A stretch of DNA of 64,000 bases from a virus (Duplodnaviria > Heunggongvirae > Uroviricota > Caudoviricetes), in the IMG/VR virus record IMGVR_UViG_3300009709_000002, positions 128,001 through 192,000 of that record. The stretch is one strand, 5' to 3'. The notes under the pieces were generated by a model. The model made no database searches. It had not been told where the DNA came from and was given only the letters and a program-made list of their open reading frames with translations. Below, one piece after another: positions 8,304-37,519 of this stretch. How positions within the stretch are numbered: the stretch's first letter is position 1; the number at the start of each line of letters is the position of its first letter. A program made the position numbers and the translations under genes.

Positions 8304-8885
8304 TTAATTGAAGTTTACCCCGGCTTTGATGAGATGTAGCTGCAAAACAGCTGCTAAAGCATATGCAATCGCGTGTGCTTTCTTAAACGCATATCCATTC
8401 GTATCTTGGCGATAAAGCTCAACACGATATCTGAGCGGATCTTGCACGTAGTTCTTCAGCATGAATCGTTTTTGCGGACGAATCAACGCCATGCAATCTG
8501 CTAGCTCAAGAATACTTCTCGGCTTTACTTGCTCGATTACTTCAAAATGTTTTGATAGCTGGAACAGCTGTTGAACGACAGATGGGATTTTGAGCAAGTC
8601 CCAATCCGGTTCTGTCTTTACCAGAATCCGAATTTCTTCTTTTGACTCAAAATAGTCGTAGATGTACAGGTGGAGAAAGTCCACCTTGAAGCAGTCTAGC
8701 TGCTCGGCGATATCATACGGGACCGCCGCAAGACCAGTGATAGGATCAACCGCTATGTCTTGAAAGTACACTCCACATGGATGGGGTAGCAGCTTACCAT
8801 CTTTGTACATGGAAGCTTTTACCACATTCTTCGGAAAGACCTTCAAGGGGTCGAAGCTATTCGGTGTATCTATGTCGATGTCCAT
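8304..8885 (-). CDS. dnaE: DNA polymerase III alpha (DnaE)-like, C-terminal catalytic fragment of a split enzyme
   Basis: Begins MDIDID; also HPCGVY, FKVDFLHL, ALIRP, YAFKKAHAIAYA, matching DnaE PDFDVDF, HAGGV, KFDFLGL, ALFRPG, YGFNKSHSAAYA. Confidence 0.85.
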   Translation of the reverse strand: MDIDIDTPNSFDPLKVFPKNVVKASMYKDGKLLPHPCGVYFQDIAVDPITGLAAVPYDIAEQLDCFKVDFLHLYIYDYFESKEEIRILVKTEPDWDLLKIPSVVQQLFQLSKHFEVIEQVKPRSILELADCMALIRPQKRFMLKNYVQDPLRYRVELYRQDTNGYAFKKAHAIAYALAAVLQLHLIKAGVNFN

Positions 8886-9242: not shown

Positions 9243-9911
9243 CTAGATACCTAAAGCCTCCGCAATTTGCTTGAGATCACGAACTTCTTGCGGGTGCTTT
9301 TCAAGCTTGTACGACCAATAATCTACACCAATTTGCTTCATCAAAAGCTGTCGTTCAGAGACAGAGTGACCAGACAGCCACTCCTTGAATTTCTTCGAAC
9401 AGAACAAAAGCCATGGTGAAAGCTTTCTTTGCTGAATGAGCTCCAACATTTCACCGAAGGCTAACTTTGGAAAGACGTCAGAAGTTGGAACTTCAAAGAT
9501 CTCGGACAGTGTCAACATAGTTTCAACCGAGATATTTGCCTGCTCCATCGGAGATGACTTTTTGTCATGCCACTCCAAATACCGCTTGTAAGCCTCCGGG
9601 TGATGCCAAAGATTAGGTTGAAGCTTCTCAGACACCATCAACTTCACATACGCCTTTGAATCAGCGATCTGTAGATCACGACAGTATTGTGCGAACTTCA
9701 TGAACGCCGTGTAGTAGCTTGACGTCATGAAGGTTTCGATTGGTGGTGCTTTACGGCGCTGAGATTCTAACCAGTGGCTATACAATCCATAAGCGGCTCG
9801 ACCGACAGGAGTTTGAATCTCCTTCGTTCGAACCATCTCCTTACATTCATGCCTCAGGTACGCTTTTTCCGTTGCGATTTTCCTGCTGCAGTATTTGCAC
9901 TCGAAGCTCAC
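9243..9911 (-). CDS. Zinc-finger protein
   Basis: N-terminal FECKYCSRK...YLRHEC. Confidence 0.65.
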   Translation of the reverse strand: MSFECKYCSRKIATEKAYLRHECKEMVRTKEIQTPVGRAAYGLYSHWLESQRRKAPPIETFMTSSYYTAFMKFAQYCRDLQIADSKAYVKLMVSEKLQPNLWHHPEAYKRYLEWHDKKSSPMEQANISVETMLTLSEIFEVPTSDVFPKLAFGEMLELIQQRKLSPWLLFCSKKFKEWLSGHSVSERQLLMKQIGVDYWSYKLEKHPQEVRDLKQIAEALGI

Positions 9912-10393
9912 TTGATTTCCGATCGTTTGTCTAAATTCATTTTAATCCAATCAGAAACGGATGTGAATTTATGCAAAGACCAAATGTTGATTGCTACCTT
10001 TGGTGGGTGAATGCCATGGTCAGAAAGCATTCTAGCTGCGACTTTTCCGCTCAAACCGAGCTTGTGCATGCCAGAAATCGCCTCATTGTACCCATCTTGT
10101 GGTTGACATGCGAGCATTGCGTCTTGATAGATATCTGAGGGCGCGAGGTGCAAGTCATATACGTAGTCTGGAAGTCGACGTTCTTCTTCACGCACGGTCT
10201 TGTAGAAAATGGCGACCATAGTGATGATGCCACGTTCATTGAAGTGGAACGTACGCCCGTCCTGAGTGTAGACTGCTCGAGGCAGTAGATTCTTCATGTA
10301 CGGCTTTTCAATCGCCGTAGCGTACATCAGCGCAAAATCTTCATCTGTAAATTTCATAGTCCTTTTAGCCTCAAATGACACTGGATGTTTCAC
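9908..10393 (-). CDS. Hypothetical protein
   Basis: ORF coupled to the clamp loader genes. Confidence 0.55.
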   Translation of the reverse strand: MKHPVSFEAKRTMKFTDEDFALMYATAIEKPYMKNLLPRAVYTQDGRTFHFNERGIITMVAIFYKTVREEERRLPDYVYDLHLAPSDIYQDAMLACQPQDGYNEAISGMHKLGLSGKVAARMLSDHGIHPPKVAINIWSLHKFTSVSDWIKMNLDKRSEIK

Positions 10394-10863
10394 TTGAGAC
10401 CAAGCTCCTTCTTCAGTGCTTTGATTTCATCAGGTTGCCAACCAAGATCTTCACCCATCTCGAGAATGTCTTGCGGAGAATACAGTCTCATCGCTTCGAT
10501 GGCGTGACGCTCACTTTCCTTCGTGTATTCCTTCACAGCCTGAAGTGAAAGTTTGGTGCCTGCTTTCTTGAGCGTTTTGTGATTCTGCCACTTGTACCGC
10601 TTCACTCCACCTTGTGAGCTGACGGTGAGAAGCTTCAACATCAGCTCCTTGTGATCATTACCTACGCTGAACAGCAGAGTGTTGACGATGCGGTTCAAGA
10701 AGATCAGCTGCTTGTCATTGTTCGTGCCGGTCATCCAGCGAAGAAGCATATAAGGAGAAACCTCCTTGATTTGATCTTCACTGAGAGTGTCCCAGATCGA
10801 GTAGTCTTTCTGATCGATCCGAGCCAACACTTCGAACATGTCTAAGGCTCGTTCTTTTGCCAT
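10390..10863 (-). CDS. Clamp loader small subunit (gp62-like)
   Basis: 157 aa, SPYMLLRWM and KRYKW motifs, coupled to gp44. Confidence 0.7.
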   Translation of the reverse strand: MAKERALDMFEVLARIDQKDYSIWDTLSEDQIKEVSPYMLLRWMTGTNNDKQLIFLNRIVNTLLFSVGNDHKELMLKLLTVSSQGGVKRYKWQNHKTLKKAGTKLSLQAVKEYTKESERHAIEAMRLYSPQDILEMGEDLGWQPDEIKALKKELGLK

Positions 10864-11810
10864 TACTTAGTCAATGCCTTCTTAAGGTGAATGCACATTT
10901 CTTCAAAGTTCAGCTGCGGAATAGCAACGAACGCATGACGATACATCGCCTGCGAGATTTGTAGAAGTGCTGCATCGAGAGCTTCAATGGAATTGCACTG
11001 AGGAAACTCGTGGACGTGTTGGTACATGATCTCATATACGTCATTGAATTGCTCGCCAGAGACTTCAGTCTTCACGAATTCACGGAGGCCTTGGATGTTA
11101 CCAGCTACGATCAGCTCTTGAATCTTGAACTGATAGTCAGCGATCGAATTGGCCGAACCAGGAGGTTGGAGCCTGCCGTCCTTCGTATTTTCCTCGAGAC
11201 GGTCAATGATCTTGCGAATGTCTGGGTGCGATTCTTCGATGTAGGTGTTGAGGTTGATCAACGCATCGTCATCGATCTCTACGCCTTCAGCCAAGAGAAT
11301 TTCAACGCAACGCATCAGAATCGCTTCCTTGTCCGGCGCCTTGAAGAAATATTGACGCATGCGAGACTTGATCGCCGGCATGATCTTGTTGGCGTAGTTA
11401 CAAGTTCCAATGAATCGGCAGGTATCGGAGTTCTTTTCAAGAACTTCACGAAGTACGCCCTGTGCGTTCAGCGATAGATAATCCATCTCCTGAAGGCTGA
11501 TGATCTTGAAGGGGCTTGAGAAAGCGAATGATTCGGCGAACGGAAGAATCGTGTTTCGAACGAACTCAACGCTGTTGTCATCAGACGCATTGACGTGGAG
11601 AACGTCAGAGTCTTCGACACCAAGCGAACGGATGAGAATTTCTGTGATGGAAGTTTTACCAGCGCCTTGACTACCAGACAACAGCAAGTGTGGCAGATTG
11701 CCCGACTCGATGATCTCGCTTAGCTTTGCTTTATGCTCTGCATTCTCGAAGATGTATTCATCGATGGTATTCGGACGATACTTTTCTGTCCACAGTTTTT
11801 TGATTGCCAT
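10863..11810 (-). CDS. Clamp loader large subunit (gp44/RFC)
   Basis: LWTEKYRP, GSQGAGKT, NASDD, SRM; Walker B reads LQEMD. Confidence 0.93.
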   Translation of the reverse strand: MAIKKLWTEKYRPNTIDEYIFENAEHKAKLSEIIESGNLPHLLLSGSQGAGKTSITEILIRSLGVEDSDVLHVNASDDNSVEFVRNTILPFAESFAFSSPFKIISLQEMDYLSLNAQGVLREVLEKNSDTCRFIGTCNYANKIMPAIKSRMRQYFFKAPDKEAILMRCVEILLAEGVEIDDDALINLNTYIEESHPDIRKIIDRLEENTKDGRLQPPGSANSIADYQFKIQELIVAGNIQGLREFVKTEVSGEQFNDVYEIMYQHVHEFPQCNSIEALDAALLQISQAMYRHAFVAIPQLNFEEMCIHLKKALTK

Positions 11811-14612: not shown

Positions 14613-15176
14613 TTAATCTGGTCGTATGAAGTCTGTAATTTCGATTTCGTACAAGACCGGGTCTACATCATGCAAACCTAGAAGGTAAAGAAGATAGCTT
14701 GAGCACGAACTACCACGACCGACACCCCAAACGATGTTCTGCTTTTCAAACTCAGCGAGAACGTAGATCAGTGTGCGGAGAACTGGATAAAGATTGAGGT
14801 CCCTGAAGAGGGTTATCTCCAGCTCAAACCTAGCCAACCGCGCGTCATACAAAGCGTCTTTCTCAACCTTCTCGATCAACCCGATCAGGTATTCATCAAC
14901 GTCTAAGTATTTATAGTGGTCTGGCAGGGTCCAGCTAGGTGGGAAAATGTTTGGAGTGAGCTCGGTCTTGACACCGATCTTCACATCAGAGAATTGATTG
15001 AACTGCCGGAGCTCCGGCGTCATTGAGGTAACTGCTAACTTATTTATCGGCAGTCCCTTGACGATCATGCTTTGAAGCTTGTCTGGTTCGACAACGCTTA
15101 CGCCATCGAACCAGAGCACACGGTCAGACAGTTGCGAGTTCACCAGCCTTGGCCTCGTACTCTGCAGTTTCGACAC
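14613..15176 (-). CDS. dnaE: DNA polymerase III alpha (DnaE)-like, N-terminal palm fragment of a split enzyme
   Basis: GVGRGSSCSSYLLYLLGLHDVDPVLYEIEITDFIRPD matches DnaE [37 protein letters not shown]. Confidence 0.85.
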   Translation of the reverse strand: MSKLQSTRPRLVNSQLSDRVLWFDGVSVVEPDKLQSMIVKGLPINKLAVTSMTPELRQFNQFSDVKIGVKTELTPNIFPPSWTLPDHYKYLDVDEYLIGLIEKVEKDALYDARLARFELEITLFRDLNLYPVLRTLIYVLAEFEKQNIVWGVGRGSSCSSYLLYLLGLHDVDPVLYEIEITDFIRPD

Positions 15177-22407: not shown

Positions 22408-22740
22408 TCACTTGTCGTGCTTTGCTGATGGAATGCTGAAAGGATGGTCAATAAACAACTGCTTTTCTGCATTCTCTAGAACGAACTGTTCTAGAGCTTT
22501 TGCAGCAGGAAGCATGATCATATTCAAAATGCCCCGCATCTCATCTGTCATGTCTTCGTAGTACAGCATCACTGTCCAAATTACACTGCCGTTTAGTGGT
22601 GACGTGTCTTTGAAAACCTGCGTCTTTGGCGATGATTCAGTCGTATTGACCTTCACAGTATCAAGCCCGAGGAGCCGGGTTTCATGCTTGTCGCCAACTT
22701 GTTTTTGCTCAATCTTGTAGATGTATGCGGTCTTGTTCAT
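22408..22740 (-). CDS. Hypothetical protein
   Basis: TAATG overlap with nrdB. Confidence 0.6.
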   Translation of the reverse strand: MNKTAYIYKIEQKQVGDKHETRLLGLDTVKVNTTESSPKTQVFKDTSPLNGSVIWTVMLYYEDMTDEMRGILNMIMLPAAKALEQFVLENAEKQLFIDHPFSIPSAKHDK

Positions 22741-23891
22741 TAGAAATCCAAAAGGTTGTCATCATTGACGTTGGTATCAAGAGCATTGATCACGTAGTCC
22801 GTGATTTCCTTCTCTTGCGGTGCAGTTTGATTGCTTTCTGCATCCAACCAGCTTGACAGCCACGTGAATGGATTGTCATTGTGCTGGTAACGCTGCTTGA
22901 GTCCGAGAGATTTCAAACGTTTGTTTGCGATGTGCTCGAGGTATTGGGACAGCAGTGTTTCATTGAGGCCGATAATCGATCCGTCTTTGAACAGATACGC
23001 AGCCCATTCTTTTTCCTGGCTTACAACTTCATCGAAGATCGCGTACACATCAGCTTCACATTCCTTCATGATCTGCAAGAAGTCAGCGTCATTTTCTTTA
23101 CGCTGAAGATTGCGAATGATGTTAAGCGGAATGCCAACGTGCTGCGATTCATCCTTAGCGATCAGACGGATGATGTCGGCATTGCCAACCATCTTGCCTT
23201 GCTGACCAAAAGCGAAGCTACATGCGAACGAGACGTAGAAACGAATCGACTCAAGAGCGTAAATTGAGATGAGCGCCAGGTAAAGCTTCTTCTTCAGCTC
23301 ATAAAGCGTGAGTTCATACGTCTTCTCATCTGGTGAACAACCATCTTGTGCAGTGGTGACTTCATGGTAGCCGGGGCCAAGAGCCTTGTACAAGTTGGCG
23401 TAGTTGATGAAGTCGTCATAGTATCGGACGATTGCAGCAGCGCGACCGACAATGTTCGAGTCTTTGAGAATAGAGTCAAAGACTTCAGATGGATCGGTGT
23501 AGAGGTTTTGGAGAATCCATTGGTATGATTGTGCGTGGATGTTCTCAAAAGCGGCCCACCAAATGACGCATCCTTCAAGCTCAGGCAGAGAAATCCATGG
23601 AATGAGCGCCACGAGAGGTGCACGTTCTTGGACAGAATCCAGCAAAACTTGGTATGCGATGTTCTTGGTGAAGATGTGACGTTCATGATCTGCGAGCAGC
23701 TTGAAGTCAGAATAATCTTTCGTGAGGTTGATTTCTTCTGGATTCCAGAAGAAACTCTTTTGAGTTCGTTTGATCTTGTCAAAGATCGGATACTTCATGC
23801 GGTCGAAACGAGCAATACCGGCTTCTTCGCCGAAAAACATTGGTTGCTCATTAGGATCAACAAAATTTAGGTTGAGAACTGTTGCGGTCAT
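22740..23891 (-). CDS. nrdB: Class Ia ribonucleotide reductase beta subunit
   Basis: FFWNPEEI, LLDSVQ, ENIHAQSY, ESIRFYVSFACSFAF, DESQH, APQE. Confidence 0.96.
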   Translation of the reverse strand: MTATVLNLNFVDPNEQPMFFGEEAGIARFDRMKYPIFDKIKRTQKSFFWNPEEINLTKDYSDFKLLADHERHIFTKNIAYQVLLDSVQERAPLVALIPWISLPELEGCVIWWAAFENIHAQSYQWILQNLYTDPSEVFDSILKDSNIVGRAAAIVRYYDDFINYANLYKALGPGYHEVTTAQDGCSPDEKTYELTLYELKKKLYLALISIYALESIRFYVSFACSFAFGQQGKMVGNADIIRLIAKDESQHVGIPLNIIRNLQRKENDADFLQIMKECEADVYAIFDEVVSQEKEWAAYLFKDGSIIGLNETLLSQYLEHIANKRLKSLGLKQRYQHNDNPFTWLSSWLDAESNQTAPQEKEITDYVINALDTNVNDDNLLDF

Positions 23892-26806: not shown

Positions 26807-28024
26807 TTAGAAGTTGAAAAGCTTCGACTCCTTGCTGTCGGTGCGTTCCTTGATATTGCTTTGCATCAGGAATTTTGCATCTGTGATGGTGCGCTCACCG
26901 TTCAGGTAGCCCATGACTTCACGAACCATGTCACCGCCTGTGCAAACCGGGACGTTCTGGCACACGTGGTTCAAGCTTTGCGTAACTAGTTCGAAATCAT
27001 GCGGCAGAGCCATCAGGTGCATACACTCACGTGGAGTCAGGATGCGATTATCACGAGGATGAATAGAATCCAACTTACGTCCAATCATCGCTGAGAAATC
27101 ACCATCAGGACGATAAAGTGACATGCTACCGTCCCAGATACCGCCGCCAGTCTCAATTTTTGCCTTGATGCGATCAATTTCACGAATCTGACGATCCATG
27201 CCCTGAGTCACGAAATAGGCACGAGCTTCATTCCACTGGTCTGTTACGAACATGTAACGAATGAGCGTCATAGTGTGCAGGCCACGTTCATACAGCACTT
27301 GGCGCATGTGAGCCAGACCTTCACCCTTAAACTTGTGTTGCAGGAATTGCATGTACGGGTTGTCGTACAGAGTTTCCTTCGCAAGCTTCAAGTCTGCGTC
27401 AGTGTGGCCAGTTACGCCGTGTGGAATTTCATCCAGATATTCGATCAGCGTCTTGCGAGGGCGCTTGTAATAGTGCATTTCTGGAGCAGCGGAATCGCGC
27501 CAGAAGAAGTAGAAAGTACGCTTACGATTTTGTGGAATGCCGTGGTAAATCGAGTCGGTGTGATAAAGCGACAGCGAGTAGCCGTTTCGATCAGCGACAT
27601 CCTGGAAGAATTCTTTGATCTCTTGTCCACGGTTTGTGTACAGCGTTGGTGCATTTTCTCCCCAGAAAACCTTTGGCTTGAGCGTGCCTAGAACATACTC
27701 GGCTGATTTTAGCATCCACTGATTTTGTGTAGCACGCTGTTCGGCGCTACCGGTGGAGAGCATAGACAGACCAGCGCAAGGACAGACAGCCGAGATGAAA
27801 TCCATGTCTTTGTACTTGGCTTCATCATAACCTTGTTCGGCATGATCAGCATCGATCTGGAAGTAGGGGGTGTTTGGAAAGCGGTGAGTTACGTTCTTCT
27901 CATTTTCCGCAAATGGAGTGTACGTGAAGAGTGCTTCTGGAGGAACACCAGTTACTTGGTGGCCAGCTTCAGTCAAACCACCAATAAGAGGGACAATTGT
28001 GCCCCAGCGAAGATTCTTTGTCAT
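26807..28024 (-). CDS. Divergent DNA cytosine-C5 methyltransferase-fold enzyme
   Basis: Motif IV CPCAGLS, VI GENAP, VIII PQNRKR, IX RILTPREC; motif I reads PLIGG and motif X reads CQNVPV. Confidence 0.85.
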   Translation of the reverse strand: MTKNLRWGTIVPLIGGLTEAGHQVTGVPPEALFTYTPFAENEKNVTHRFPNTPYFQIDADHAEQGYDEAKYKDMDFISAVCPCAGLSMLSTGSAEQRATQNQWMLKSAEYVLGTLKPKVFWGENAPTLYTNRGQEIKEFFQDVADRNGYSLSLYHTDSIYHGIPQNRKRTFYFFWRDSAAPEMHYYKRPRKTLIEYLDEIPHGVTGHTDADLKLAKETLYDNPYMQFLQHKFKGEGLAHMRQVLYERGLHTMTLIRYMFVTDQWNEARAYFVTQGMDRQIREIDRIKAKIETGGGIWDGSMSLYRPDGDFSAMIGRKLDSIHPRDNRILTPRECMHLMALPHDFELVTQSLNHVCQNVPVCTGGDMVREVMGYLNGERTITDAKFLMQSNIKERTDSKESKLFNF

Positions 28025-28047
28025 ATGCGTATAGTCTAGAAAGTAAT

Positions 28048-28077
28048 AAAGCCTAGGATGAAATATCCTAGGCTTTT
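28048..28077. terminator. Inverted repeat / terminator
   Basis: AAAGCCTAGGAT-GAAAT-ATCCTAGGCTTT. Confidence 0.55.
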
Positions 28078-28135
28078 AAGCGACAGATAATTCCGTTGAG
28101 GATATTTATCTGTCTTCTAGACTAACGCGCTGGTG

Positions 28136-28375
28136 TCAGTCGAAGCGTTGCCGCAACCAGGCTCTGAGTTCGTCTTCATTCGAGACGTCGACGAACGGAC
28201 GATCATTGCGGTGGCGAACTCGGCATTCCCAATCGCTAGAACCGTCTGAGTAATTCGTGTCGATCATGCTGCACGTTTCATCGAGAAGATGCACAGTGTA
28301 GTCAGGGTTGTTGCCATCCTTGTGCCACTTGATACCTTCTTCATCCAACACACGAGTAACGTCATCGATCTTCAT
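28136..28375 (-). CDS. Hypothetical protein
   Basis: GGAGAGG SD; 79 aa. Confidence 0.6.
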   Translation of the reverse strand: MKIDDVTRVLDEEGIKWHKDGNNPDYTVHLLDETCSMIDTNYSDGSSDWECRVRHRNDRPFVDVSNEDELRAWLRQRFD

Positions 28376-28392
28376 GATTACCTCTCCTATCG

Positions 28393-28659
28393 TTAGATGG
28401 TCAGCGTCTTGATGGCTTCATAGAAACCACCGTCAAATTTGTCTTGGTCGAAGCCGGCGTTGACGAAAGCATTAACCAGCTTCGTGAATTCTTTCTTGTT
28501 GACGTTGGTGCTGCTCAGCTGCATGTACACGAAAGCTCGTGTGCTATGAGCACGAAACTGAACGCTTTTCGTCCCATCTTCGGAGGTGTACGTGTAAGCT
28601 TCCTCTTGACGGCCTTCACCAGGAACGTTGGTGCGATCGACGAGGTTGAACTTAATCAT
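28393..28659 (-). CDS. Hypothetical protein
   Basis: 88 aa, downstream of a promoter. Confidence 0.6.
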   Translation of the reverse strand: MIKFNLVDRTNVPGEGRQEEAYTYTSEDGTKSVQFRAHSTRAFVYMQLSSTNVNKKEFTKLVNAFVNAGFDQDKFDGGFYEAIKTLTI

Positions 28660-28689
28660 GTTGTTTCTCGGTTGGTTGACGTTAGAGTT

Positions 28690-28719
28690 ATTATATCCTC
28701 AACCGATGAACAAGTAAAC
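28690..28719 (-). promoter_or_regulatory. Sigma70-type promoter
   Basis: GTTTAC-N18-TATAAT. Confidence 0.75.
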
Positions 28720-28729
28720 CCTTTTGTGC

Positions 28730-29116
28730 TCAGACGTCGGTGTGACGTTGATTTTCTTTGTTCGTCAGATCGTGAACGAGCATGATAACGTTGACTTCAG
28801 GATGCTCAGCCTTGATGATCTTTGCCTGAACCTCGTCATCCTCGAAGTGGCAAGCGATCTGATAGCCATAGCTCTTCAACTTCTGAATCTGAGCTGCTTT
28901 ATGGAAACCAGACGATTCACGGGTCTTAGCTTCGTACGGCAGCGGATTGAAGTGAACCAGGTTGTGGATGCCGCGTTTCTGTAGCATCTTGATCGTCTCA
29001 TCCGTTTCTTCGAATGAGCGGCCGGTGATGATGTGATCTGCTGGGCCTGGATGGACGCCACCGAACTCTTTGCCGATGTAGATGACGCCGTCGATGTCAA
29101 ATGTGTTGATTTTCAT
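28730..29116 (-). CDS. Capless HAD-family phosphatase
   Basis: FDIDGV (DxD), ITGRS, K, FEDD; TAATG-coupled to the glycosyltransferase. Confidence 0.85.
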   Translation of the reverse strand: MKINTFDIDGVIYIGKEFGGVHPGPADHIITGRSFEETDETIKMLQKRGIHNLVHFNPLPYEAKTRESSGFHKAAQIQKLKSYGYQIACHFEDDEVQAKIIKAEHPEVNVIMLVHDLTNKENQRHTDV

Positions 29117-30408
29117 TAGAAGCTCAGTAAACTATTGATTGAAACTTTTTCAACTTCAGCATAGCGTTCCATCGTGTCCCAAAGCGTCTTGTTGAGCTCT
29201 GAGATGCGAACAGAGCGTGCATGACGAGTCATGACTTCTCGTTGAATCTTCCCTCGTTCTTCGAGATCATTGAGACGAGGATCAGCAACGGCCGCAGTGA
29301 GCGCATCGCCAAATTCTTGCTTACGAGACAGAAGTACAGGAATGAAGTAGTCTTTGCCTAGAGTATCAAAGCAGGCATGATGAACAGTCCCGTCACGAAG
29401 CGTCTTACAGAAGACGAGAGACGGTACACCGTAAGTTCCTGCCTCGAGAGGTGCTACTGGCGACGACTCCACGGGGCACGTAACAAATAGCCCGCGCGCT
29501 TTCGAAAGGTCTTGAAGAAGCTCTTTACGAGGGGAATTACAGCAAAAATTAACAAGGCCAGGATGACGATTATCCAGGGTATCTCGGTGCGGTTTGATTT
29601 GCTCATTGTAGTACTCGTAGTCTTCGAGATTGCCGCCGAAAGCAATATAGACCTTAACCTTCGGAGGATTGGCCATGAAAGTCATCCCTTCGAGTAGCTT
29701 TCCGATGTTTTTGTCCTTCTCAGGACGCCCAATGACCATGAAATAGTCATCAGGAGCTTCAGCTTTTGGTGCAAGCGAGTTGATCGCCGTAGAATAGCAG
29801 ACCTTGTCAAAGATGCGATCGATCTCTTCATCTGACTTGATGAAGGCAAAGTGCTCACTGCCAGACTGATAGCGGCGGTGAATCAGCTTCCGCCACATGT
29901 CTCGTTGATGTTTTGAAACGCAGACAAGCGTACTGCCGTTCAACGTCATGTCACGATAGCCTTGAAGCTTCGCGAACATGCTCATATCACCAGCAGTCTC
30001 TGGCGTATTGTGGATGACACAGAGAACTGGAATGGTCTTTGACAGCTCAGCGCAGAGCTTGACGTGTGAGCTCGAGAAGCTATGGTTGATGATAGCCTCA
30101 GGTTCGAGCTGCTTGATCGTAGCTCGAATTTCAGCGGTCTTCAGCTTATTGAGACGACCTTTTTCTTGCTTGGTCACCTCGCCAGCAACTTCATAGCTTT
30201 CTTCCGAACCAGCCGAGAGCTTCACGATCTTGATTTCTGGACGATCCGGAAACACCGCATCATCCGAGTCAGACGTCGTCAAGAACAGAACTTCATGACC
30301 AAGATCAGCAAGAAGCTCGGCATGGAGTCGCTCGACAGTTTGAATGCCGCCACCAAGCTTTCCAGCGATGTGGCGCTTTTCCATCTGACACAGAACCAAA
30401 ACTCTCAT
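29116..30408 (-). CDS. GT-B fold glycosyltransferase (GT4-like)
   Basis: GGGIQTV...LGHEV, VIHN, VCVS, GRPEKDKN, ESSPVAPLEA (E-x7-E). Confidence 0.85.
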   Translation of the reverse strand: MRVLVLCQMEKRHIAGKLGGGIQTVERLHAELLADLGHEVLFLTTSDSDDAVFPDRPEIKIVKLSAGSEESYEVAGEVTKQEKGRLNKLKTAEIRATIKQLEPEAIINHSFSSSHVKLCAELSKTIPVLCVIHNTPETAGDMSMFAKLQGYRDMTLNGSTLVCVSKHQRDMWRKLIHRRYQSGSEHFAFIKSDEEIDRIFDKVCYSTAINSLAPKAEAPDDYFMVIGRPEKDKNIGKLLEGMTFMANPPKVKVYIAFGGNLEDYEYYNEQIKPHRDTLDNRHPGLVNFCCNSPRKELLQDLSKARGLFVTCPVESSPVAPLEAGTYGVPSLVFCKTLRDGTVHHACFDTLGKDYFIPVLLSRKQEFGDALTAAVADPRLNDLEERGKIQREVMTRHARSVRISELNKTLWDTMERYAEVEKVSINSLLSF

Positions 30409-31455
30409 TTAGAACTCCAGTAGGCTGGCAGCTCGTTCGGAATCTGCCTTCTTCTTTTCGGCTTCGGCCGTCTTCTTCTTTTCCTTGTTCACCTCAAGCT
30501 TTCTCGCATTGATAAGCTCTGGCTTCTCCAAGAATCGTTGATAGACGCCAAACTGACAGCAAGTAATCTCACACCCGAACGATGTTAGGAAATCTACGTG
30601 CTGCGTAGGCTTCAAATTTTGCGAGAGTGCCTTACGATCGACATCCTCATGTTCGAATATTATATCTTGATTGTCGCGAATGTAAAGGAGTATTTGCTGG
30701 TCGGTGACTTTATCCTTCTTTTGATTCGGATAGAGCTTCTCGATGGTCTTGTGAGCACCAGGACCGGCAATCACAAAGTCCTCATTCTCATTCATCGAGA
30801 TATCATAGCATCGAGCCAGGTTGGAATTTGCGTGATAGCCGTAGTAGTTGCCGATGCCTCGGTAGCTCGTCAGCTTTTTGAATGCTTCTTCCATCGTCGG
30901 GCGACATGCATAGAAGTCGATGAGACCACCCTTCTTGAATGAGGCGATCCACTCGATCATGTTGGCCCAATCGGTGTTACCAACCGCTCCACCACAATAC
31001 TCACGAGCAGCAGTTTGTAGTGACGTGCGAAGCTCTGTCGTTCCCCACTGTTCTTTCTTCTCAGTGCGAGCTCGAAGCAGATTAGCCCGAATCCACTCTT
31101 GATAATCTTCATCTTCAGGCAAACGCTCAAAGTCAATGAGATTCTTCGTTGAGAATTCTGTCTCATTGATCGCGTTCAAGATAGCCTGAGCCGGCCCGTA
31201 GAACTTGACTGCAAAAGCGTTCAAGATCTTGTTGGTGAAGGATACTTCTTCATTGAAGATGTATTTCATCAACCAATCGACCTCACCGTGGCGAGTACGA
31301 TTAGGGTGCCAGTACATTACGTCAATTTGTAGTGCCGGGTGCGGCGGCACATACTCATCTTTTCTTCCTTCAGAGATCAACACTTCACGCTTGTTGATCT
31401 CCTTCAGGAAGTACTTCAGTTCTGCTAGAACCGTTTTGTCAAATTTGTCAATCAT
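30409..31455 (-). CDS. aGPT-PPlase-type (HhH glycosylase-fold) DNA base-hypermodification transferase
   Basis: LTSYRGIGNYYGY HhH-like motif, DFVIAGPGA signature, CEITCCQFGVYQR. Confidence 0.7.
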   Translation of the reverse strand: MIDKFDKTVLAELKYFLKEINKREVLISEGRKDEYVPPHPALQIDVMYWHPNRTRHGEVDWLMKYIFNEEVSFTNKILNAFAVKFYGPAQAILNAINETEFSTKNLIDFERLPEDEDYQEWIRANLLRARTEKKEQWGTTELRTSLQTAAREYCGGAVGNTDWANMIEWIASFKKGGLIDFYACRPTMEEAFKKLTSYRGIGNYYGYHANSNLARCYDISMNENEDFVIAGPGAHKTIEKLYPNQKKDKVTDQQILLYIRDNQDIIFEHEDVDRKALSQNLKPTQHVDFLTSFGCEITCCQFGVYQRFLEKPELINARKLEVNKEKKKTAEAEKKKADSERAASLLEF

Positions 31456-32585
31456 CAGAAGAATCCAATTCGTTTGCTCTTAAATTCTCGATCAACGTGG
31501 TGCTCAGGCTCGAAGATTTCAGCGAGCGTATATTCCTCGCGAGGATGCAACGTATGCTTGATTCCTGCCTGATCGGCCAGGTTTTGCGCTTCCTCAGGAG
31601 TCAGCTTGCGGAAATCAAGTACATCATGGCAACGGCCTGGACGAATGAGTGCGTGATCGATGCTATCATATTTAGTGAGGTTAGCACTGAACACGATTTT
31701 CTTAGACGCAACTTTGATCAGACCATCAGAGATGTTCAGAATACGAGACATCAGCTTGTTGCCGTGATCTTCTCGGCTCGTGATCATCAGATCAGCGTCT
31801 TCGATGACGAGAAGATCTTGCTCATCATTCATCAAGAAGTTGATGAAGAAGTCATCCATCGCGAGAATTGCTTCATCAAACGTCAGAACAGCCGTGAGCT
31901 TATTGTTGTAGATCATGCTACGGGTGAATGAGGTCTTGCCAGTTCCAGGAGGCCCGAGCAGCAACAGAATGCTGGCGTCGCTTTCAAGGTAGCGCTTTTG
32001 GTAAGCGTCGATACCTTCAGTCATCCACGGATAGAAGGCATCTAGCGCTTTCTTCGGTTCTTCCAGCATGATCGTGCGTTGACGGCAGCTACCTTCAGAG
32101 AGGTAGTACCAGTAGACCTTGGAAAGCTTGAGGTGAGCGAAAGCTGCGTCGACGAGCTCTGCAAACTTGTTCACGAGCTTCATCGGGCCGAAAACGTCGA
32201 TTTGAATGATGCGGTTCTTGCAATCAGTTGGTGCAGCTTCATAGCCAGCAAGCTGGTCATGCGTGCGGATGATCATGATGTTCTGACCACCTTCAACGAT
32301 CACATCGGCGTCGAAAGCGTTGGACTGCGTGAACTCGTAGACGAACTGAGATGGCTTGTAAAATCCACCAGTGTTCTTGTTGATGGTTTCTTCAGCGGCT
32401 TCAAATGCGATCTTCTCGATTTGCTCAAGCGCATACACGAAAGTTCCGCGGAAGCTGATCTTGATCTGCGTGGTGAAGATGCTATCATTGAGCTGGTCTT
32501 TGAACTGAAAGATTTCAAGATAACTTGCGTCAGACTTATTGTACGCGTTGACGTTAAGATTTACACTTGGAACTTGAATAGACAC
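31455..32585 (-). CDS. AAA+ ATPase
   Basis: GPPGTGKT, LVIEDAD, LNISDG, ALIRPGR, C-terminal IGF. Confidence 0.88.
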   Translation of the reverse strand: MSIQVPSVNLNVNAYNKSDASYLEIFQFKDQLNDSIFTTQIKISFRGTFVYALEQIEKIAFEAAEETINKNTGGFYKPSQFVYEFTQSNAFDADVIVEGGQNIMIIRTHDQLAGYEAAPTDCKNRIIQIDVFGPMKLVNKFAELVDAAFAHLKLSKVYWYYLSEGSCRQRTIMLEEPKKALDAFYPWMTEGIDAYQKRYLESDASILLLLGPPGTGKTSFTRSMIYNNKLTAVLTFDEAILAMDDFFINFLMNDEQDLLVIEDADLMITSREDHGNKLMSRILNISDGLIKVASKKIVFSANLTKYDSIDHALIRPGRCHDVLDFRKLTPEEAQNLADQAGIKHTLHPREEYTLAEIFEPEHHVDREFKSKRIGFF

Positions 32586-32651
32586 AGAAGAACCTCTAAC
32601 TATAATTTGCGATATTTGAAATACTATACTACATTACAACAAAATGATATT

Positions 32652-33119
32652 TTAGGTGTCAAACCAAAATGTCTTACCATCTGTTGTTATTGCACAATCT
32701 GGAGAAAAGCGAATCTTTTTCACTTTCTTCATTAGTTCACCAACTTCTTGACCAATTACAGTAAAGCAAAATTGTTCACCGCCTGGTATCCAAACATCTT
32801 CCAACAACATTACTTCAGACCGCATCAAGATAGTTTTGACTATCTTATTAACATCTTTTTGTTTTGGCACTGGAAATGCTTGATCATTTTCATCAATATC
32901 GGTGTAATATTGACTCCAAAATTTGTCTAAAAGTTCAGATTGAACAATTAAATGTACAAGAAGTTCATTATCTTTGTCTCTAAAGAATACTCTATGGCAA
33001 TTGTTGTCATATCCAGTTTCTTTATCAAGATTCACCATTGATGAAATATCAGGATTCACCCATTTATTCTTGAATCCATTATAGTCGATCATCAAAATTT
33101 CAAATTTATCATCAATCAT
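32652..33119 (-). CDS. Hypothetical protein (AT-rich insert)
   Basis: Overlaps the endonuclease stop; low GC. Confidence 0.55.
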   Translation of the reverse strand: MIDDKFEILMIDYNGFKNKWVNPDISSMVNLDKETGYDNNCHRVFFRDKDNELLVHLIVQSELLDKFWSQYYTDIDENDQAFPVPKQKDVNKIVKTILMRSEVMLLEDVWIPGGEQFCFTVIGQEVGELMKKVKKIRFSPDCAITTDGKTFWFDT

Positions 33120-33720
33120 GTTTTCTCTTCTTACACTTATCACCATGATATGCAATCATAGAATTGTATTGACCTGTTTTTCCACAATGCTCACAAGTGA
33201 AAACCGGTCTATTTGATGCAGCTGTTTTATAGTTCTCGCGAGCTTCATCAGTGCGAACTTTACCAAGATTAGCCTTTCCAGCATTAGATGAATTTTCTGA
33301 GCGCCATTCTTTAGATTTGTTCATCAAAACATTGCTTATATGATCTCTTGTCTCTTTGTCATGCGTTTTACCAAAGAAACCATTCTTTTCACCAAGCGCG
33401 CTTTGTCTTCGTTTTTCTCTAGTTTCTTCAGTCATTGGTCCTCTATAACCACCAATTCCGCCTGGTGCTATATTCCACCCTATCTGGGCTACAGGACGAA
33501 GCTCTTTTTCTTTGTCATACGCATCCATGAAATTTTCAAATTCTTGGAGGATAACAAGGCACGAGAACGTGAGCCGATATTTTCTAATGCCGTGTCCGAC
33601 TTTATAAATGCTTTTTGTATGACTGTCAAACCTGCCTTTGACGTCATTCGTTACACCAACGTAACCGAGCTGTATGTTAGTTGGATCAGTTGGATGTGGG
33701 ATATGATAGAGATAGTACAA
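33112..33720 (-). mobile_element. Free-standing GIY-YIG homing endonuclease with NUMOD3 and a Zn-ribbon tail
   Basis: YYLY...YVG, RFDSH, E, WN; NGFFGKTHDKETR; CEHC; AT-rich. Confidence 0.8.
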
Positions 33721-33767
33721 GTGGAGATCTCCGTGTTTGAAATATTTATCAACACAGAAATCTCCAC
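33721..33767 (-). promoter_or_regulatory. RBS-sequestering hairpin with a late promoter in its loop
   Basis: GTGGAGATTTCTGTGTTGA-TAAATATT-TCAAACACGGAGATCTCCAC, then TTG start. Confidence 0.7.
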
Positions 33768-33790
33768 CGCTAAATTATGTCTTTAGCTTA

Positions 33791-35074
33791 TCATTCGTAA
33801 TCAGTTTTACTATCCTGGAAGGTATATGGCAAATCACGTGCAATTGGATCATTTACTTTCTTTTGCGGCTCAGTCATAGCCGTATAAGTGCGACGAGCGA
33901 GAGCATCACATTCAAATTTTGCATCAGCTGATGTCATTTGGCACGGAGGGCTCTTCTGTGTATACGCAGAGCATCCGCGCAGGTAACCAACGATACCCAT
34001 CTCAGCAGCGACGCGGCAGAAACGAATTGCCGAGATTACCACACCACCCGAGTTAGGGCTATCTTGCACAGACATACGAGCAGTAAGCTCATAACGAGCT
34101 CCACCAAATCCATATGCCACGATATCAAGATTAGCGATCTTGTTATCTGATCCCACATATTGACCACCCGGTTTTTGCAGCACTGTCAGTGACGGACCTG
34201 CGTAAAGCGTCATACCAGCTGTGCCAGCACCACGAACTACGTTTTGACCCTTCAGCACGTTTTCCTTCGATACGTGCTTGCTGTGCAGACGTTCCTTGTT
34301 TGCCATGTTCAGGAAGTCGGTGTTAGCCGTGCGACCTGTACGAATATGCTCTTGACCTTGCGTCGAGCCTGCAGCCATGTTCATCTGAATGTGCTGAGTA
34401 ACCATCAGGCCAGCATCCAGCATCGCACCTTGGAGAACTTCCGACAGACGGCTTGCGCCCCAGATCGAACGCATATCCGAGCCGACGATCGTCAGGCCAG
34501 CATCGATGAATTGCTGTTCGGTTTCCATCGCTTCCTTCGTCGAGATACGAGTCGGGATGCAGTTAACCATGTGGCAGCCTGCTGCTACTGCCGCGTCGAT
34601 GTAGAACTTCGATGCAGTTTCTGACCCAACCGGGCAGTAGTTGATAACAACTTCTGCTTTGATCGACTTCAGAATTTCAACTACTTCATTGAAGGTGAGT
34701 TCTGGTTGCTTGTCATCCACGCGGAAAGAAACATCTTCCGGGAAATCATGCATGTACGGTGCAACACCGTCAAGAACCGGACCCTTGTAAACACGTGCGT
34801 GAGGAGCGATTGCAGCATCGGTGATCTCAGTGACGTGATCCATGGCGCAGTTCGGCGAGGCACGAAGAGCTTCCTTCAGCGGACGGTTCACCTTGCGCTT
34901 ATCGATGTCGAAACCACCAACAAAGACGATATCTTGAGCAGCGTAGCCGCCGATATCTTCATACATCAGACCGACTTTGTCATCCGGATTTTCGATGTAA
35001 TATTGAACGCCTTCTACGAGACTTTTTGCACAGTTACCTACGCCGACGATCGCGACGCGAATTTTGTTAGACAT
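33791..35074 (-). CDS. ino1: myo-Inositol-1-phosphate synthase (bacterial/archaeal type)
   Basis: IRVAIVGVGNCA, YCPVGSE, NCIP, NTDFLNM, SKHVSK, DNK, QDSPNS, KSPP. Confidence 0.9.
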   Translation of the reverse strand: MSNKIRVAIVGVGNCAKSLVEGVQYYIENPDDKVGLMYEDIGGYAAQDIVFVGGFDIDKRKVNRPLKEALRASPNCAMDHVTEITDAAIAPHARVYKGPVLDGVAPYMHDFPEDVSFRVDDKQPELTFNEVVEILKSIKAEVVINYCPVGSETASKFYIDAAVAAGCHMVNCIPTRISTKEAMETEQQFIDAGLTIVGSDMRSIWGASRLSEVLQGAMLDAGLMVTQHIQMNMAAGSTQGQEHIRTGRTANTDFLNMANKERLHSKHVSKENVLKGQNVVRGAGTAGMTLYAGPSLTVLQKPGGQYVGSDNKIANLDIVAYGFGGARYELTARMSVQDSPNSGGVVISAIRFCRVAAEMGIVGYLRGCSAYTQKSPPCQMTSADAKFECDALARRTYTAMTEPQKKVNDPIARDLPYTFQDSKTDYE

Positions 35075-35088
35075 TGTAAGACCTTAAC

Positions 35089-35157
35089 ATTTCAGTTGTT
35101 GACGGGCATTGGTCGATGGTGTTTCACACCAGAGTAGGCCCGGGTTCAAAATGAACC
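35089..35157 (-). ncRNA. Tandem structured leader motif, copy 2 (gene-proximal)
   Basis: GGUUCA-UUU-UGAACC, CGGGC CUACUC [hairpin] CCAAU GCCCG, UC AACAACUGAAAU. Confidence 0.7.
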
Positions 35158-35196
35158 AACTAGAGGAGAGACTTGCTCAAATCAGATTGGTCCGCT

Positions 35197-35271
35197 ATTT
35201 CAGTTGTTAACGCACATTGGCTCGTATAAGACGGTGCTCATCGGAGAGTAGGTGCGGAATGCATTGCATCC
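35197..35271 (-). ncRNA. Tandem structured leader motif, copy 1
   Basis: GGAUGC-AAU-GCAUUC, CGCAC CUACUC [hairpin] CCAAU GUGCG, UU AACAACUGAAAU. Confidence 0.7.
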
Positions 35272-35280
35272 ATTACCTAA

Positions 35281-35310
35281 ATCTTAACTTCTTTCAAACA
35301 ACCTGTACAT
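35281..35310 (-). promoter_or_regulatory. Sigma70-type promoter for the ino1 leader
   Basis: ATGTAC-N18-TAAGAT; predicted +1 near 35274; a late ATAAATA also lies at 35348. Confidence 0.55.
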
Positions 35311-35373
35311 TTTAAAGTGCAAAATTGTTTGATGATTTAGATAGAAGTATTTATAAGAGTCCAGCGTGATGCT

Positions 35374-35586
35374 TCAATTTTCGCGAATCATTCGAAGTGC
35401 TTCAACCTTCGTGAAATCTGGGATCAGGTCTGGCGAGTAAAGCAGCCGCCAGGTTCCGTCAGGTAGCTCATCGAGATGAATGAAGTTCTTCCCCGTCCTC
35501 GGACTTGCCGCTTTTGAGATGTCTAAAACGAGGTTCGTGCCTTCGATAGCTATCGAGCGCTTCGGATCTTGTGATTTCTTTTTCAT
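35374..35586 (-). CDS. Hypothetical protein
   Basis: 70 aa; overlaps the 3' end of the upstream ORF. Confidence 0.5.
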   Translation of the reverse strand: MKKKSQDPKRSIAIEGTNLVLDISKAASPRTGKNFIHLDELPDGTWRLLYSPDLIPDFTKVEALRMIREN

Positions 35587-35941
35587 GCTCTTCTTTATAA
35601 AAGTCTATGAATGTTTGTGGAACTTCTATGCCACCATTTTCTATGACACGCCTAAGCCTTCCTGCGATCAACCGACGAGCTTCTGAAAGCGTTATGTCAT
35701 CTAGCAGCGCCCACAGCAATGTCCATAAATCAGTTGCAATCATCATCGATATCTGATGCCGAGCTGCTTCTAAATATGGCTTTGGCATGTGAAAATTCTT
35801 CTTACTATCAAGCTTTTCAACCTGAAATGTAATGCCTGGATTACCTGGCAACATCTCAAGTTGAGATTGATAGCGTTCGTCATATGGATTATACAGGCGA
35901 GCTTCCACCTGTATATCCTCTTGATGAATTGGAATGAACAT
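35468..35941 (-). CDS. Hypothetical protein
   Basis: TGATG-coupled to the upstream gene. Confidence 0.55.
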   Translation of the reverse strand: MFIPIHQEDIQVEARLYNPYDERYQSQLEMLPGNPGITFQVEKLDSKKNFHMPKPYLEAARHQISMMIATDLWTLLWALLDDITLSEARRLIAGRLRRVIENGGIEVPQTFIDFYKEEHEKEITRSEALDSYRRHEPRFRHLKSGKSEDGEELHSSR

Positions 35942-37041
35942 CAGAATGACAGAAGAGTGGCCGCTGTCTTAGCTGCAAGAAGCGGATTCGGCACATTTTC
36001 CTTCAAATCCCAACGATAGAATTTACGGCCAAGGTGAACTGAGCGCGGGCGCTCCATGTAGGTGTTCATGAACGCTACGCCATCCATCTTGTACCATTCT
36101 TCCGGCCATTCAAAGATTGACCAACCAGCGTGCTTAGCAGCCATCTCACGGAGACCATCGATGAAAACGTTCAGAACCGCTTGACGTTCTGCACGAGTTC
36201 CAGTGAATGGAGTGCCTTTATACCAACCAGCTTTTGGAAGTACGCGAGATTCGTCTTCGATCGGAAGCGGAGTAACCAGCTCGATCGGACGATCAAGCGC
36301 TACCAATGCTTGCTCATAGTCCCGAAGCAGCTCTTTCGTGAAAGCGATCGGATCAGCTTCACGGCAGATATGGTGACGAATGTCAATGCTTCCCCAGTAG
36401 CACGTCATCGAGTCAATGTTCTTCATATCGAAGCCATATTCCGTGATTTCATTCACGATACCCTTCTTGATGATACCACGAAGAGTTCGGCCGTCTTTAC
36501 GGAGAACGAGGGATGTCGGCTTGTAGGCCGAGAATGAGTGTGAGTCACCGATCACCAGGTGTCGAACCTTACCATTGCCATACGTCAAGCCTGGATCTAA
36601 GATCCAATCGGTGATGCCTTTGCAGCGGTCGGAAACCTTCGCCCAGTCCACGCCCTTCCAGTAGTCAGAAGGAGTTCCCTTCTTGATACCACAGCGCCAG
36701 CCGTAGTCGATCATCGGCCAATCAAGCGAGACGTATTTGATGTGGTCATGCTGTGGCCAAGCGAGACGTTCAAAGAACTTCGCCGAGTGCGGTGCAAGAC
36801 CGTCAAATACGTTCAAAACCTTACAAGCTGGTGTGTAATCGACGTCCATGCCGTGATAGATGTAGATCGTGTCATATTGACTCCAATCATCTAGACGAGC
36901 TTCACCACGTTGGTCAAGCACATCTACATCGATGCCAACATTTCGAAGTTGATTAGCGCGGAGCCAAGCCCAGGCCGCGGTGTGTGAATATTCAGTTGAT
37001 GCCAGCTTACGGCAAATCAGGTCAAGTGCAGCTTTAGCCAT
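35941..37041 (-). CDS. Two-domain protein with an SGNH/GDSL-like C-terminal domain
   Basis: LVIGDSH, DGRTLRG, WGSIDIR, RSVHL; probable start MAKAAL. Confidence 0.55.
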   Translation of the reverse strand: MAKAALDLICRKLASTEYSHTAAWAWLRANQLRNVGIDVDVLDQRGEARLDDWSQYDTIYIYHGMDVDYTPACKVLNVFDGLAPHSAKFFERLAWPQHDHIKYVSLDWPMIDYGWRCGIKKGTPSDYWKGVDWAKVSDRCKGITDWILDPGLTYGNGKVRHLVIGDSHSFSAYKPTSLVLRKDGRTLRGIIKKGIVNEITEYGFDMKNIDSMTCYWGSIDIRHHICREADPIAFTKELLRDYEQALVALDRPIELVTPLPIEDESRVLPKAGWYKGTPFTGTRAERQAVLNVFIDGLREMAAKHAGWSIFEWPEEWYKMDGVAFMNTYMERPRSVHLGRKFYRWDLKENVPNPLLAAKTAATLLSF

Positions 37042-37519
37042 TTTGTTCGGCCCAATCAAGATTAAGAGGCTCCGCGAAGACTTCCGTGGTCACAAAGTCA
37101 AAATCTGGCAACTTGAGTGACTTGACGTCAAAACCTTCTGGGATGTTAAAGGTGAGCGTTACGTGTGGGTTGTAGTATGGTCGATCATTGGTTCCACCCA
37201 TCGCCAAGAAATCCTTGTGCATTTCATGGAAGATCGGACAATCTAGGACCAGCACCAAAACGTCTTGCGTTCCAGTTTCTGAGTCAAAGATATCGAAGCG
37301 CAATGATTTAGCGACTATTGTTCTTGGACCAACTTGGTCATAAGCACGCAACACAGTTCTACGGCTAAACAACAGTGTCGTGTGGATACTCTCTACACGT
37401 ACTCTACCGCGATCAAGACCAGACGTCTTAAACCATTCTCTCAGGTTCTTCTTGGTCTCTTTCGTGTAGTAAACGCAGACATACGTCCCTTGCTTTTGTA
37501 GTATGTCTGTCATCTTCAC
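37034..37519 (-). CDS. 2H phosphoesterase, T4 gp57B/Acb1-like
   Basis: GTYV, IHTTLLFSR, YNPHVTLTF (two HxT motifs). Confidence 0.8.
   Translation of the reverse strand: MKMTDILQKQGTYVCVYYTKETKKNLREWFKTSGLDRGRVRVESIHTTLLFSRRTVLRAYDQVGPRTIVAKSLRFDIFDSETGTQDVLVLVLDCPIFHEMHKDFLAMGGTNDRPYYNPHVTLTFNIPEGFDVKSLKLPDFDFVTTEVFAEPLNLDWAEQNG

Follow-up and report, generated by a model that had tools for sequence, protein, structure and literature searches.

A short hydrophobic C-terminal peptide of the form LLxF is shared by four enzymes of a DNA-modification gene cluster in a jumbo phage and by the same phage's own gp43-family DNA polymerase, and it is probably a clamp-docking peptide that would concentrate the four enzymes on sliding clamps at nascent DNA. 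The cluster lies in a 64,000-nucleotide window, the whole stretch of DNA analysed here, which comprises bases 128001-192000 of one virus contig. Since this single contig is 360,227 bp long and bounded by direct terminal repeats, it is that of a jumbo phage. Its closest named relative is Ralstonia phage RsoM2USA (DNA polymerase identity 47.6%), followed by XacN1, Xoo-sp13 and the Stenotrophomonas phages CM1 and RAS14. Coordinates without a prefix refer to the window, G000 is the whole genome of this phage and G001 is an independent 389-kb relative. The tailed and untailed proteins of the cluster are as follows.

26807-28024, minus strand: C5-cytosine methyltransferase (MTase)-like enzyme, 405 residues (Pfam PF00145, 1e-20), ending ..ESKLFNF (SKLFNF codons at 26810-26827)
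28730-29116, minus strand: HAD-type phosphatase, 128 residues (weak match to Pfam PF03767), ending ..QRHTDV
29116-30408, minus strand: GT4-family (GT-B) glycosyltransferase, 430 residues (Pfam PF13439, 2.4e-8), ending ..INSLLSF (NSLLSF codons at 29119-29136)
30409-31455, minus strand: aGPT-PPlase1-like DNA transferase, 348 residues (Pfam PF18723, HMUDK_hel, 3.7e-15), ending ..AASLLEF behind a Lys/Glu-rich linker (ASLLEF codons at 30412-30429)
31455-32585, minus strand: AAA+ ATPase, 376 residues (Pfam PF00004, 1.7e-9), ending ..KRIGFF
33791-35074, minus strand: myo-inositol-1-phosphate-synthase-like enzyme (MIPS), 427 residues (Pfam PF01658, 4e-8), ending ..SKTDYE
35941-37059, minus strand: two-domain protein with a C-terminal SGNH/GDSL-type domain, 372 residues (phrog_13881, 8e-61), ending ..AATLLSF (ATLLSF codons at 35944-35961)

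The C-termini of the four minus-strand enzymes are exactly those given in a first-pass annotation, which had claimed that all four carry the same LLxF tail, a putative tether to a sliding clamp. The observation is confirmed. The KLFNF of the MTase-like enzyme deviates, yet its orthologues, which end in LLxF-type tails, place it in the same class (SSLLEF in locus L023, ALLSF in G001; 82 of 120 homologues). The annotated region had been closed at position 35964, which takes in only the tail of the SGNH-like open reading frame (ORF), the body of which reaches 37059. The MIPS and HAD proteins, taken here as precursor-side enzymes and used as negative controls, have no clamp-type tail, just as had been claimed. 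The AAA+ ATPase has none either, and its orthologues share a conserved end of their own, ..KIGFV or ..KLGFV, distinct from the clamp type.

The frequency of the motif was assessed in a whole-genome set of 533 ORFs obtained by greedy calling, another 1,963 ORFs having been discarded. C-termini of the form LL.F are found in six of the 533, compared with 0.18 expected from the proteome-wide word frequency (Poisson P=4e-8), and the narrower [ST]LL[SE]F in five, compared with 0.02-0.05 expected; the discarded set of 1,963 contains no LL.F end. Such a scan had been expected to return the polymerase, RNase H and the late sigma factor, and the first two are indeed present. The 908-residue family-B DNA polymerase (PF00136 and PF03104), a gp43 homologue that aligns with T4 gp43 to the last residue, ends in ..QSLLSF, and the 370-residue 5'-3' exonuclease/RNase H of the FEN type (PF02739) in ..TSLLSF; both genes lie some 100 kb outside the window. 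The gp55-like late sigma factor (G000:206727-207335) has only a related end, ..YFNFEEPMND (that is, ..TEYFNFEEPMND), in which an aromatic patch precedes an acidic extension. Its layout is that of T4 gp55 (..SLDFLYEAND) and its sequence is near the KLFNF of the MTase-like enzyme; phmmer finds no orthologue of it in G001.

One further protein resembles the LL.F motif at its end:

22740-23891, minus strand: ribonucleotide reductase (RNR) small subunit NrdB, 383 residues (Pfam PF00268, 6.6e-55), ending ..DDNLLDF (22743-22760)

This NLLDF is probably the usual tail by which RNR beta binds alpha, outside the clamp-tail system, because in distant lineages NrdB and the polymerase have tails that differ independently (DFSKFL versus SIVQF in L029, EDDLFD versus ASSLF in L082, and also L087); those of close relatives stay LLxF-like (NLLDF; NLIEI in G001). 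A further look-alike, an 88-residue protein ending ..AMFEF (G000:102684-102950), is treated as a chance instance, being unconserved in G001 (..ELANADD).

Conservation of the tail, the lack of which the first-pass annotation had named as a refutation, was found in orthologues of all four enzymes. Scans of viral contigs with single proteins retrieved one relative of the aGPT-like protein and none of the polymerase; alignment-based scans succeeded. Nearly all of 120 homologues of the SGNH-like protein (38-100% identity) end in LLEF, LLEFD or LLSF, with the last four to five residues kept and the preceding ten or so hypervariable, and distant branches have changed their tails to SLDSFFE, STLEDFF or TLELFY. 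The family is present in at least 589 viral contigs, and 79 of the 80 viral orthologues retrieved have a hydrophobic-x-aromatic end. In 41 of 42 orthologues the aGPT-PPlase1-like protein ends in a hydrophobic-aromatic tail whose class matches that of its SGNH-like neighbour. For the MTase-like enzyme 110 of the 120 homologues are tailed, 28 of them in other lineage tail classes, and 10 have no tail. An LLxF-type tail ends each of 13 close cluster representatives of the GT4 protein (36-79% identity), and more distant glycosyltransferases show other clamp-type tails (SVFDMFGG, SSLEDFFS, NSLEGFFE). The peptide forms the very end of the chain and is preceded by a linker that is flexible and variable, as seen in the hypervariable stretch of about ten residues, in the Lys/Glu-rich linker of the aGPT-like protein and in the AlphaFold2 (AF2) model of the SGNH-like protein, where the predicted local distance difference test score (pLDDT) is 51 for the last residues against a mean of 89.5. 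By comparison, any hydrophobic-aromatic end at all is seen in only 2/53 MIPS and 2/51 HAD orthologues; the motif is restricted to DNA-acting proteins and absent from these two, each judged over more than 50 orthologues.

A whole-genome scan of G001 served as an independent replicate and returned the six tailed families of this phage plus one orphan. The tails are RLLSFD in the polymerase, GLLEF in RNase H, SLLEF in the SGNH-like protein, GLLEF in the aGPT-like protein, RLLEM in GT4 and ALLSF in the MTase. The orphan, a 155-residue protein (G001:227584-228051) ending ..AVLEF and without a homologue in this phage, may be a further clamp client. The client set varies between relatives, since the RNase H-like ORF448 of RsoM2USA (L003:15676-16671) ends in ..SNSILEI, where the polymerase has ..NSLLEF, and the RNase H proteins of XacN1 and RAS14 are without such a tail.

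The enzyme tail also changes in step with the polymerase tail. Records holding both the polymerase and an enzyme gene represent ten lineages, with tails such as these.

This phage: polymerase QSLLSF, enzyme ATLLSF
G001: polymerase QRLLSFD, enzyme KSLLEF
G011: polymerase SSLKAFF, enzyme ISLKNF
G007: polymerase NSIVQF, enzyme NKIVTF
G015: polymerase NLEDFFG, enzyme TLEDFF (neighbour TLDSFF)
G017 group: polymerase STSLF, enzyme INTLF
G012: polymerase ASALF, enzyme QTALF
G005: polymerase ASSLF, enzyme TLSLF
Aes012: polymerase NLFDMFDI, enzyme TLELFDI

The summed similarity of tails from the same genome is 145, compared with 62±17 when the pairings are shuffled, and the permutation P-values (P≈1e-4 for the ten lineages, 5e-4 when these are collapsed to eight) are to be read as approximate because the lineages are related. 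Within loci, the aGPT-like tail scores 10.7 against the SGNH-like tail and the MIPS end -0.1 (P=1e-9). What is informative here is the repeated convergence of non-homologous proteins inside each genome.

The phage encodes both a clamp loader and a clamp of its own. The loader genes lie in the window:

10863-11810, minus strand: gp44-type (RFC-like) clamp-loader large subunit, 315 residues (phrog_168, 6.1e-66)
10390-10863, minus strand: probable gp62-type clamp-loader small subunit, 157 residues (weak match to phrog_225, 6e-4), its gene immediately following the gp44-like one

The clamp is not evident from family models. No match was found in the phage genome to PF09116 or PF02916 (gp45), phrog_223 (T4 gp45), PF00712 or PF02768 (beta clamp) or PF00705 (PCNA_N), tblastn with T4 gp45 reached no jumbo phages, and the RsoM2USA paper annotates no clamp. 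The lead came from synteny, a sliding clamp being annotated directly downstream of the polymerase in Sinorhizobium phage Phosso. Homologous ORFs of 240-251 residues occupy that position in XacN1, RAS14, RsoM2USA and this phage (E 6e-42 to 1e-16). Here the ORF encodes an unannotated 249-residue protein (G000:257081-257830, outside the window) and has the polymerase gene on one side and the RNase H gene on the other, an arrangement shared with RsoM2USA, XacN1 and RAS14, so that the divergent clamp is flanked by two canonical, tail-bearing clients. Its AF2 monomer model, made with 30 metagenomic homologues in the alignment, has a pLDDT of 95.2 and a predicted template modelling (pTM) score of 0.89. 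All its top Foldseek matches are PCNA (probability 1.0), and VIA-align Z scores are 16.9 for PCNA and 16.4 for T4 gp45 (6drt), these two with 214-224 residues aligned, 16.2 for T4 gp45 in 1czd and 15.9 for RB69 gp45 bound to the polymerase peptide (1b77). On the strength of this model the protein is predicted to be a divergent clamp of the PCNA/gp45 fold, each protomer having two beta-alpha-beta-beta-beta domains of similar topology. Clamp and loader fit the replication kit reported for this phage group (PMC7824862). A 222-residue ORF near the loader (9243-9911) was rejected as the clamp (zinc-finger start, helical look, no gp45 similarity, no Atlas match), and matches of the clamp profile to TAL effectors among PDB sequences are a repeat artefact with no single passing stretch.

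The same relationship can be seen in phages with links to experimentally known systems. The SGNH-like and aGPT-like genes of T4-like Aeromonas phages are adjacent or fused, the fusion being represented by the 795-residue ORF233c of Aeromonas phage 44RR2.8t (L014:5423-7810) and found also in phage 31, which argues that the two proteins act together. ORF233c ends in ..SLDGLFAI and the gp43 of 44RR2.8t in ..NNLFDMFDI. The gp43 tail of 44RR2.8t and Aes012 aligns residue by residue with that of RB69 gp43, ..ASLFDMFD(F), which is the peptide co-crystallised with gp45 (PMC2988020). The tails of T4 gp43, gp55 and gp33 closely resemble one another, can be interchanged and are carried on divergent flexible linkers (PMC2988020), and the architecture of the tails described here is the same, a short end peptide on a divergent flexible linker.

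Salmonella phage ViI, which encodes a canonical gp45, provides a second case. The identities of its enzymes are taken from two papers (PMC8989533 Table 1 and PMC5889632 Table 3), neither of which mentions a clamp or a tail.

Polymerase, a gp43 homologue: C-terminus ..RRVNLLSMMGKKG
gp243, 5-hydroxymethyldeoxyuridine (5-hmdU) DNA kinase: C-terminus ..SSVSLLGLMRKA
gp247, serine:DNA transferase: C-terminus ..TSVNLMSLLKR
gp160, aG/PT-PPlase1: C-terminus ..GSVNLLDRLKKPE
orf53 (Vi01_049c; L160:1856-2068), 70-residue Cys-rich zinc-ribbon-like protein: C-terminus ..DKVNLLSLMRK
gp67, second kinase: no tail
gp226, pyridoxal phosphate (PLP) decarboxylase: no tail

The pattern [ST]xV[NS]L[LM]..[KR]K is common to the polymerase, gp243, gp247 and gp160, and when the non-polymerase tails of 210 ORFs are ranked, three of the five pathway enzymes come in the top four (P=2.6e-5). 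The orf53 protein may be a small clamp client, for example a gp33-like co-activator.

The clamp tether originally proposed, which remains putative, thus gains support from the proteome scan, from conservation in orthologues, from restriction to DNA-acting proteins, from co-variation with the polymerase and from the clamp and loader genes. The gp44/62-type loader would place the PCNA/gp45-fold ring on DNA, and the polymerase would grip the ring by its last few residues in the manner of T4 and RB69 gp43. RNase H/FEN and the four modification enzymes, with the polymerase-type tail on a flexible, fast-evolving linker, would use the hydrophobic pockets to dock on clamps that sit on freshly copied DNA or have stayed there. 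The modification of bases would in this way be concentrated on nascent phage DNA, where the enzymes could act in sequence, and the trimeric clamp may serve as a 'tool-belt' holding several of them together. As soluble precursor enzymes, MIPS and HAD would need no tether, and have none.

If the tails do bind the clamp, DNA hypermodification would be physically coupled to replication, which would explain how nascent DNA can be modified fast enough to evade host nucleases. The rule that would follow is that an enzyme with the polymerase's tail acts on DNA, so that GT4 and the SGNH-like protein would be assigned a DNA substrate, apart from MIPS and HAD. The co-variation of the tail between lineages would represent a natural specificity code for clamp-client pairs. 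ViI offers a direct test system, its gp243 kinase and gp247 transferase having already been purified and assayed. On balance we lean slightly towards a broader view, in which many phage families would use the sliding clamp as a moving assembly line for DNA hypermodification in several steps, and the polymerase-type tail would be an 'address label' by which DNA-acting orphan enzymes can be told from their sequence alone. The label, if true, would here cover an SGNH-type enzyme and GT4 in a probable inositol-linked pathway.

Several points weigh against clamp docking, in addition to the relatedness of the lineages compared above. The tail sequences, [ST]LL[SE]F and KLFNF, are neither of the SLDFLFG type found in T4 nor PIP (PCNA-interacting protein) boxes. 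The ORF calls were made by a simple greedy rule rather than by a trained gene finder. In one related locus (L054, IMGVR_UViG_3300005427_001181) the SGNH-like, aGPT-like and MTase-like proteins are all without the tail, so a tether is not obligatory; their joint absence suggests either coordinated loss or a different tether. The first-pass annotation held that the tail cleanly separates precursor supply from on-DNA steps. This is so here, where MIPS and HAD are untailed, but as a general rule it is too strong, because ViI gp67, which phosphorylates DNA, and gp226, which decarboxylates a DNA-borne group, act on DNA and yet have no tail, so that a missing tail is no proof of a substrate other than DNA. 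In T4 the interaction of alpha-glucosyltransferase (alpha-GT) with gp45 is reported not to be the main determinant of its share of glucosylation, expression signals dominating the alpha/beta ratio (PMC13216743). Finally, co-variation shows that a co-evolving partner is shared, without identifying the clamp as that partner.

This last point leaves room for docking not on the clamp ring but on some other co-evolving component of the phage replisome, for example the clamp loader, the helicase loader or the single-stranded-DNA-binding protein (SSB), since co-variation demands only some common phage-encoded partner. T4 RNase H is a case in point, since it contacts gp45 through a motif near the N-terminus and gp32 through the C-terminal region. 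We nevertheless regard this as unlikely, given that the polymerases are gp43 homologues aligned to the last residue, that the gp43 tail is the clamp epitope in T4 and RB69, and that the Aeromonas-phage enzymes have RB69-type tails. Binding to the host beta clamp is less likely still. The tails do resemble the bacterial QL[SD]LF in make-up, S-L-L-S/E-F being close to QLSLF in composition, and a DnaN domain search finds no beta-clamp gene in the phage, so that any beta clamp would be that of the host. However, genes for a clamp and a loader are present in the phage itself, with the clamp gene beside the tailed polymerase, the tails differ sharply among phage lineages and track the phage polymerase, and T4-like lineages have a tail of the gp45-binding type. 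Short hydrophobic C-termini can also be protease tags, and a tag that directs degradation, as a C-terminal degron read by a protease does, or localisation could give its carriers a common fate or timing; we find this similarly improbable, as it leaves unexplained why the tag should be at the known gp43 clamp epitope position, why it is confined to DNA-acting proteins and why, in phages that infect different hosts, its changes follow those of the polymerase tail. Chance or composition, for which one might cite tails of only 4-6 residues and the look-alike in NrdB, is already refuted by the counts (within-genome P=4e-8), by the recurrence of six families in G001 and by retention of the tail in hundreds of orthologues alongside its absence from MIPS and HAD. 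None of these explanations accounts as well as clamp docking for the identity of position with the gp43 epitope and for the T4-like and ViI cases.

The assignments of two tailed enzymes merit comment. The 'aGPT-PPlase' label of the 348-residue protein holds, despite the Pfam name HMUDK_hel, because PF18723 also matches ViI gp160 (1.3e-84), which is listed as aG/PT-PPlase1, as SP10 gp186 is listed as a kinase-PPlase1 fusion (PMC5889632 Table 3). The match in this phage scores 56.5 bits, above the curated cut-off of 25, and covers profile positions 135-273 only. For the 372-residue protein a Pfam search gave zero matches. Its AF2 model matches GDSL esterases and acyltransferases (Foldseek probability 1.0; template modelling (TM) score 0.5-0.6 on target), and the block I GDSH (165-168) and block V DxxH (D220/H223) are invariant among homologues. 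The protein thus has the GDS of block I, the DxxH of block V and the flavodoxin-like fold by which SGNH/GDSL hydrolases are recognised.

Among 80 related viral loci (L022-L101), MIPS is next to the SGNH-like gene in 53 and HAD in 51. Together, the MIPS, HAD, SGNH-like and aGPT-PPlase1-like proteins form a widespread conserved module, possibly one for an inositol-linked DNA modification; a literature search returned zero papers describing a modification of this kind. The cluster is also host to a GIY-YIG/NUMOD3 homing-endonuclease ORF (33112-33720), where G+C is 0.40 compared with about 0.47. Elsewhere in the window, two small ORFs (8304-8885 and 14613-15176) match the DNA polymerase III alpha PHROGs phrog_11778, phrog_11127 and phrog_405 and correspond to the split minimal Pol III alpha already known for this phage group (PMC7824862).

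When compared with known clamp-binding peptides, the tails described here are close to the gp45-binding epitopes of gp43, gp55 and gp33 in T4 and RB69. In both cases a short hydrophobic, often acidic end peptide follows a divergent flexible linker in unrelated proteins of one phage. None of the tails here is of the (S/T)LDFL(F/Y) type, T4-type tails being found only in T4-like relatives, and [ST]LL[SE]F, as against SLDFLFG and SLFDMFDF, is best seen as a sequence variant. Unlike in T4 and RB69, the clamp is missed by the gp45 Pfam and PHROG families, the carriers include base-modification enzymes and the RNase H tail is C-terminal. The PIP box Qxx[LIM]xx[FY][FY] does not describe the tails, only the polymerase having Q at -6 and none of them a double aromatic; nor does the bacterial beta-clamp motif QL[SD]LF or QLxLx[LF], since the tails are without the Q-L start, and the phage genome has no DnaN domains. 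In eukaryotes, DNMT1, a C5-methyltransferase, and FEN1, a flap nuclease, are recruited to PCNA by PIP boxes and act on newly replicated DNA. They are an analogue from which the present case differs in lacking the PIP pattern, in being a phage system with different enzymes and in its hypermodification chemistry.

The published precedent is T4 alpha-GT, a phage DNA-modifying enzyme already known to associate with the clamp; the finding of Sommer et al. (2004) was confirmed when the enzyme co-purified with gp45 (PMC13216743). Like the enzymes here it is a phage DNA-modifying enzyme, with an association that is physical in T4 and putative here. Unlike them it is a single enzyme without an evident polymerase-like tail (it ends in ..EQFDIITK), where this phage has a multi-enzyme pathway whose members end like the polymerase itself, in a tail that is conserved and co-varies in many lineages. 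ViI gp243, gp247 and gp160 are a further parallel, in that the aGPT-PPlase1 family (PF18723) is shared and the enzymes end in the tail of their own polymerase; the ViI product is 5-(2-aminoethoxy)methyldeoxyuridine (5-NeOmdU), compared with the MIPS/HAD/GT4/SGNH cluster here. No description of a polymerase-type tail shared by hypermodification enzymes was found in the literature searched. New in the present case are the occurrence of the LLxF tail class in a jumbo phage not of the T4 type, a clamp that family models fail to detect, the set of carriers (GT4, SGNH, aGPT-PPlase1 and MTase), and the use of MIPS and HAD as negative controls together with a ten-lineage test of co-variation.

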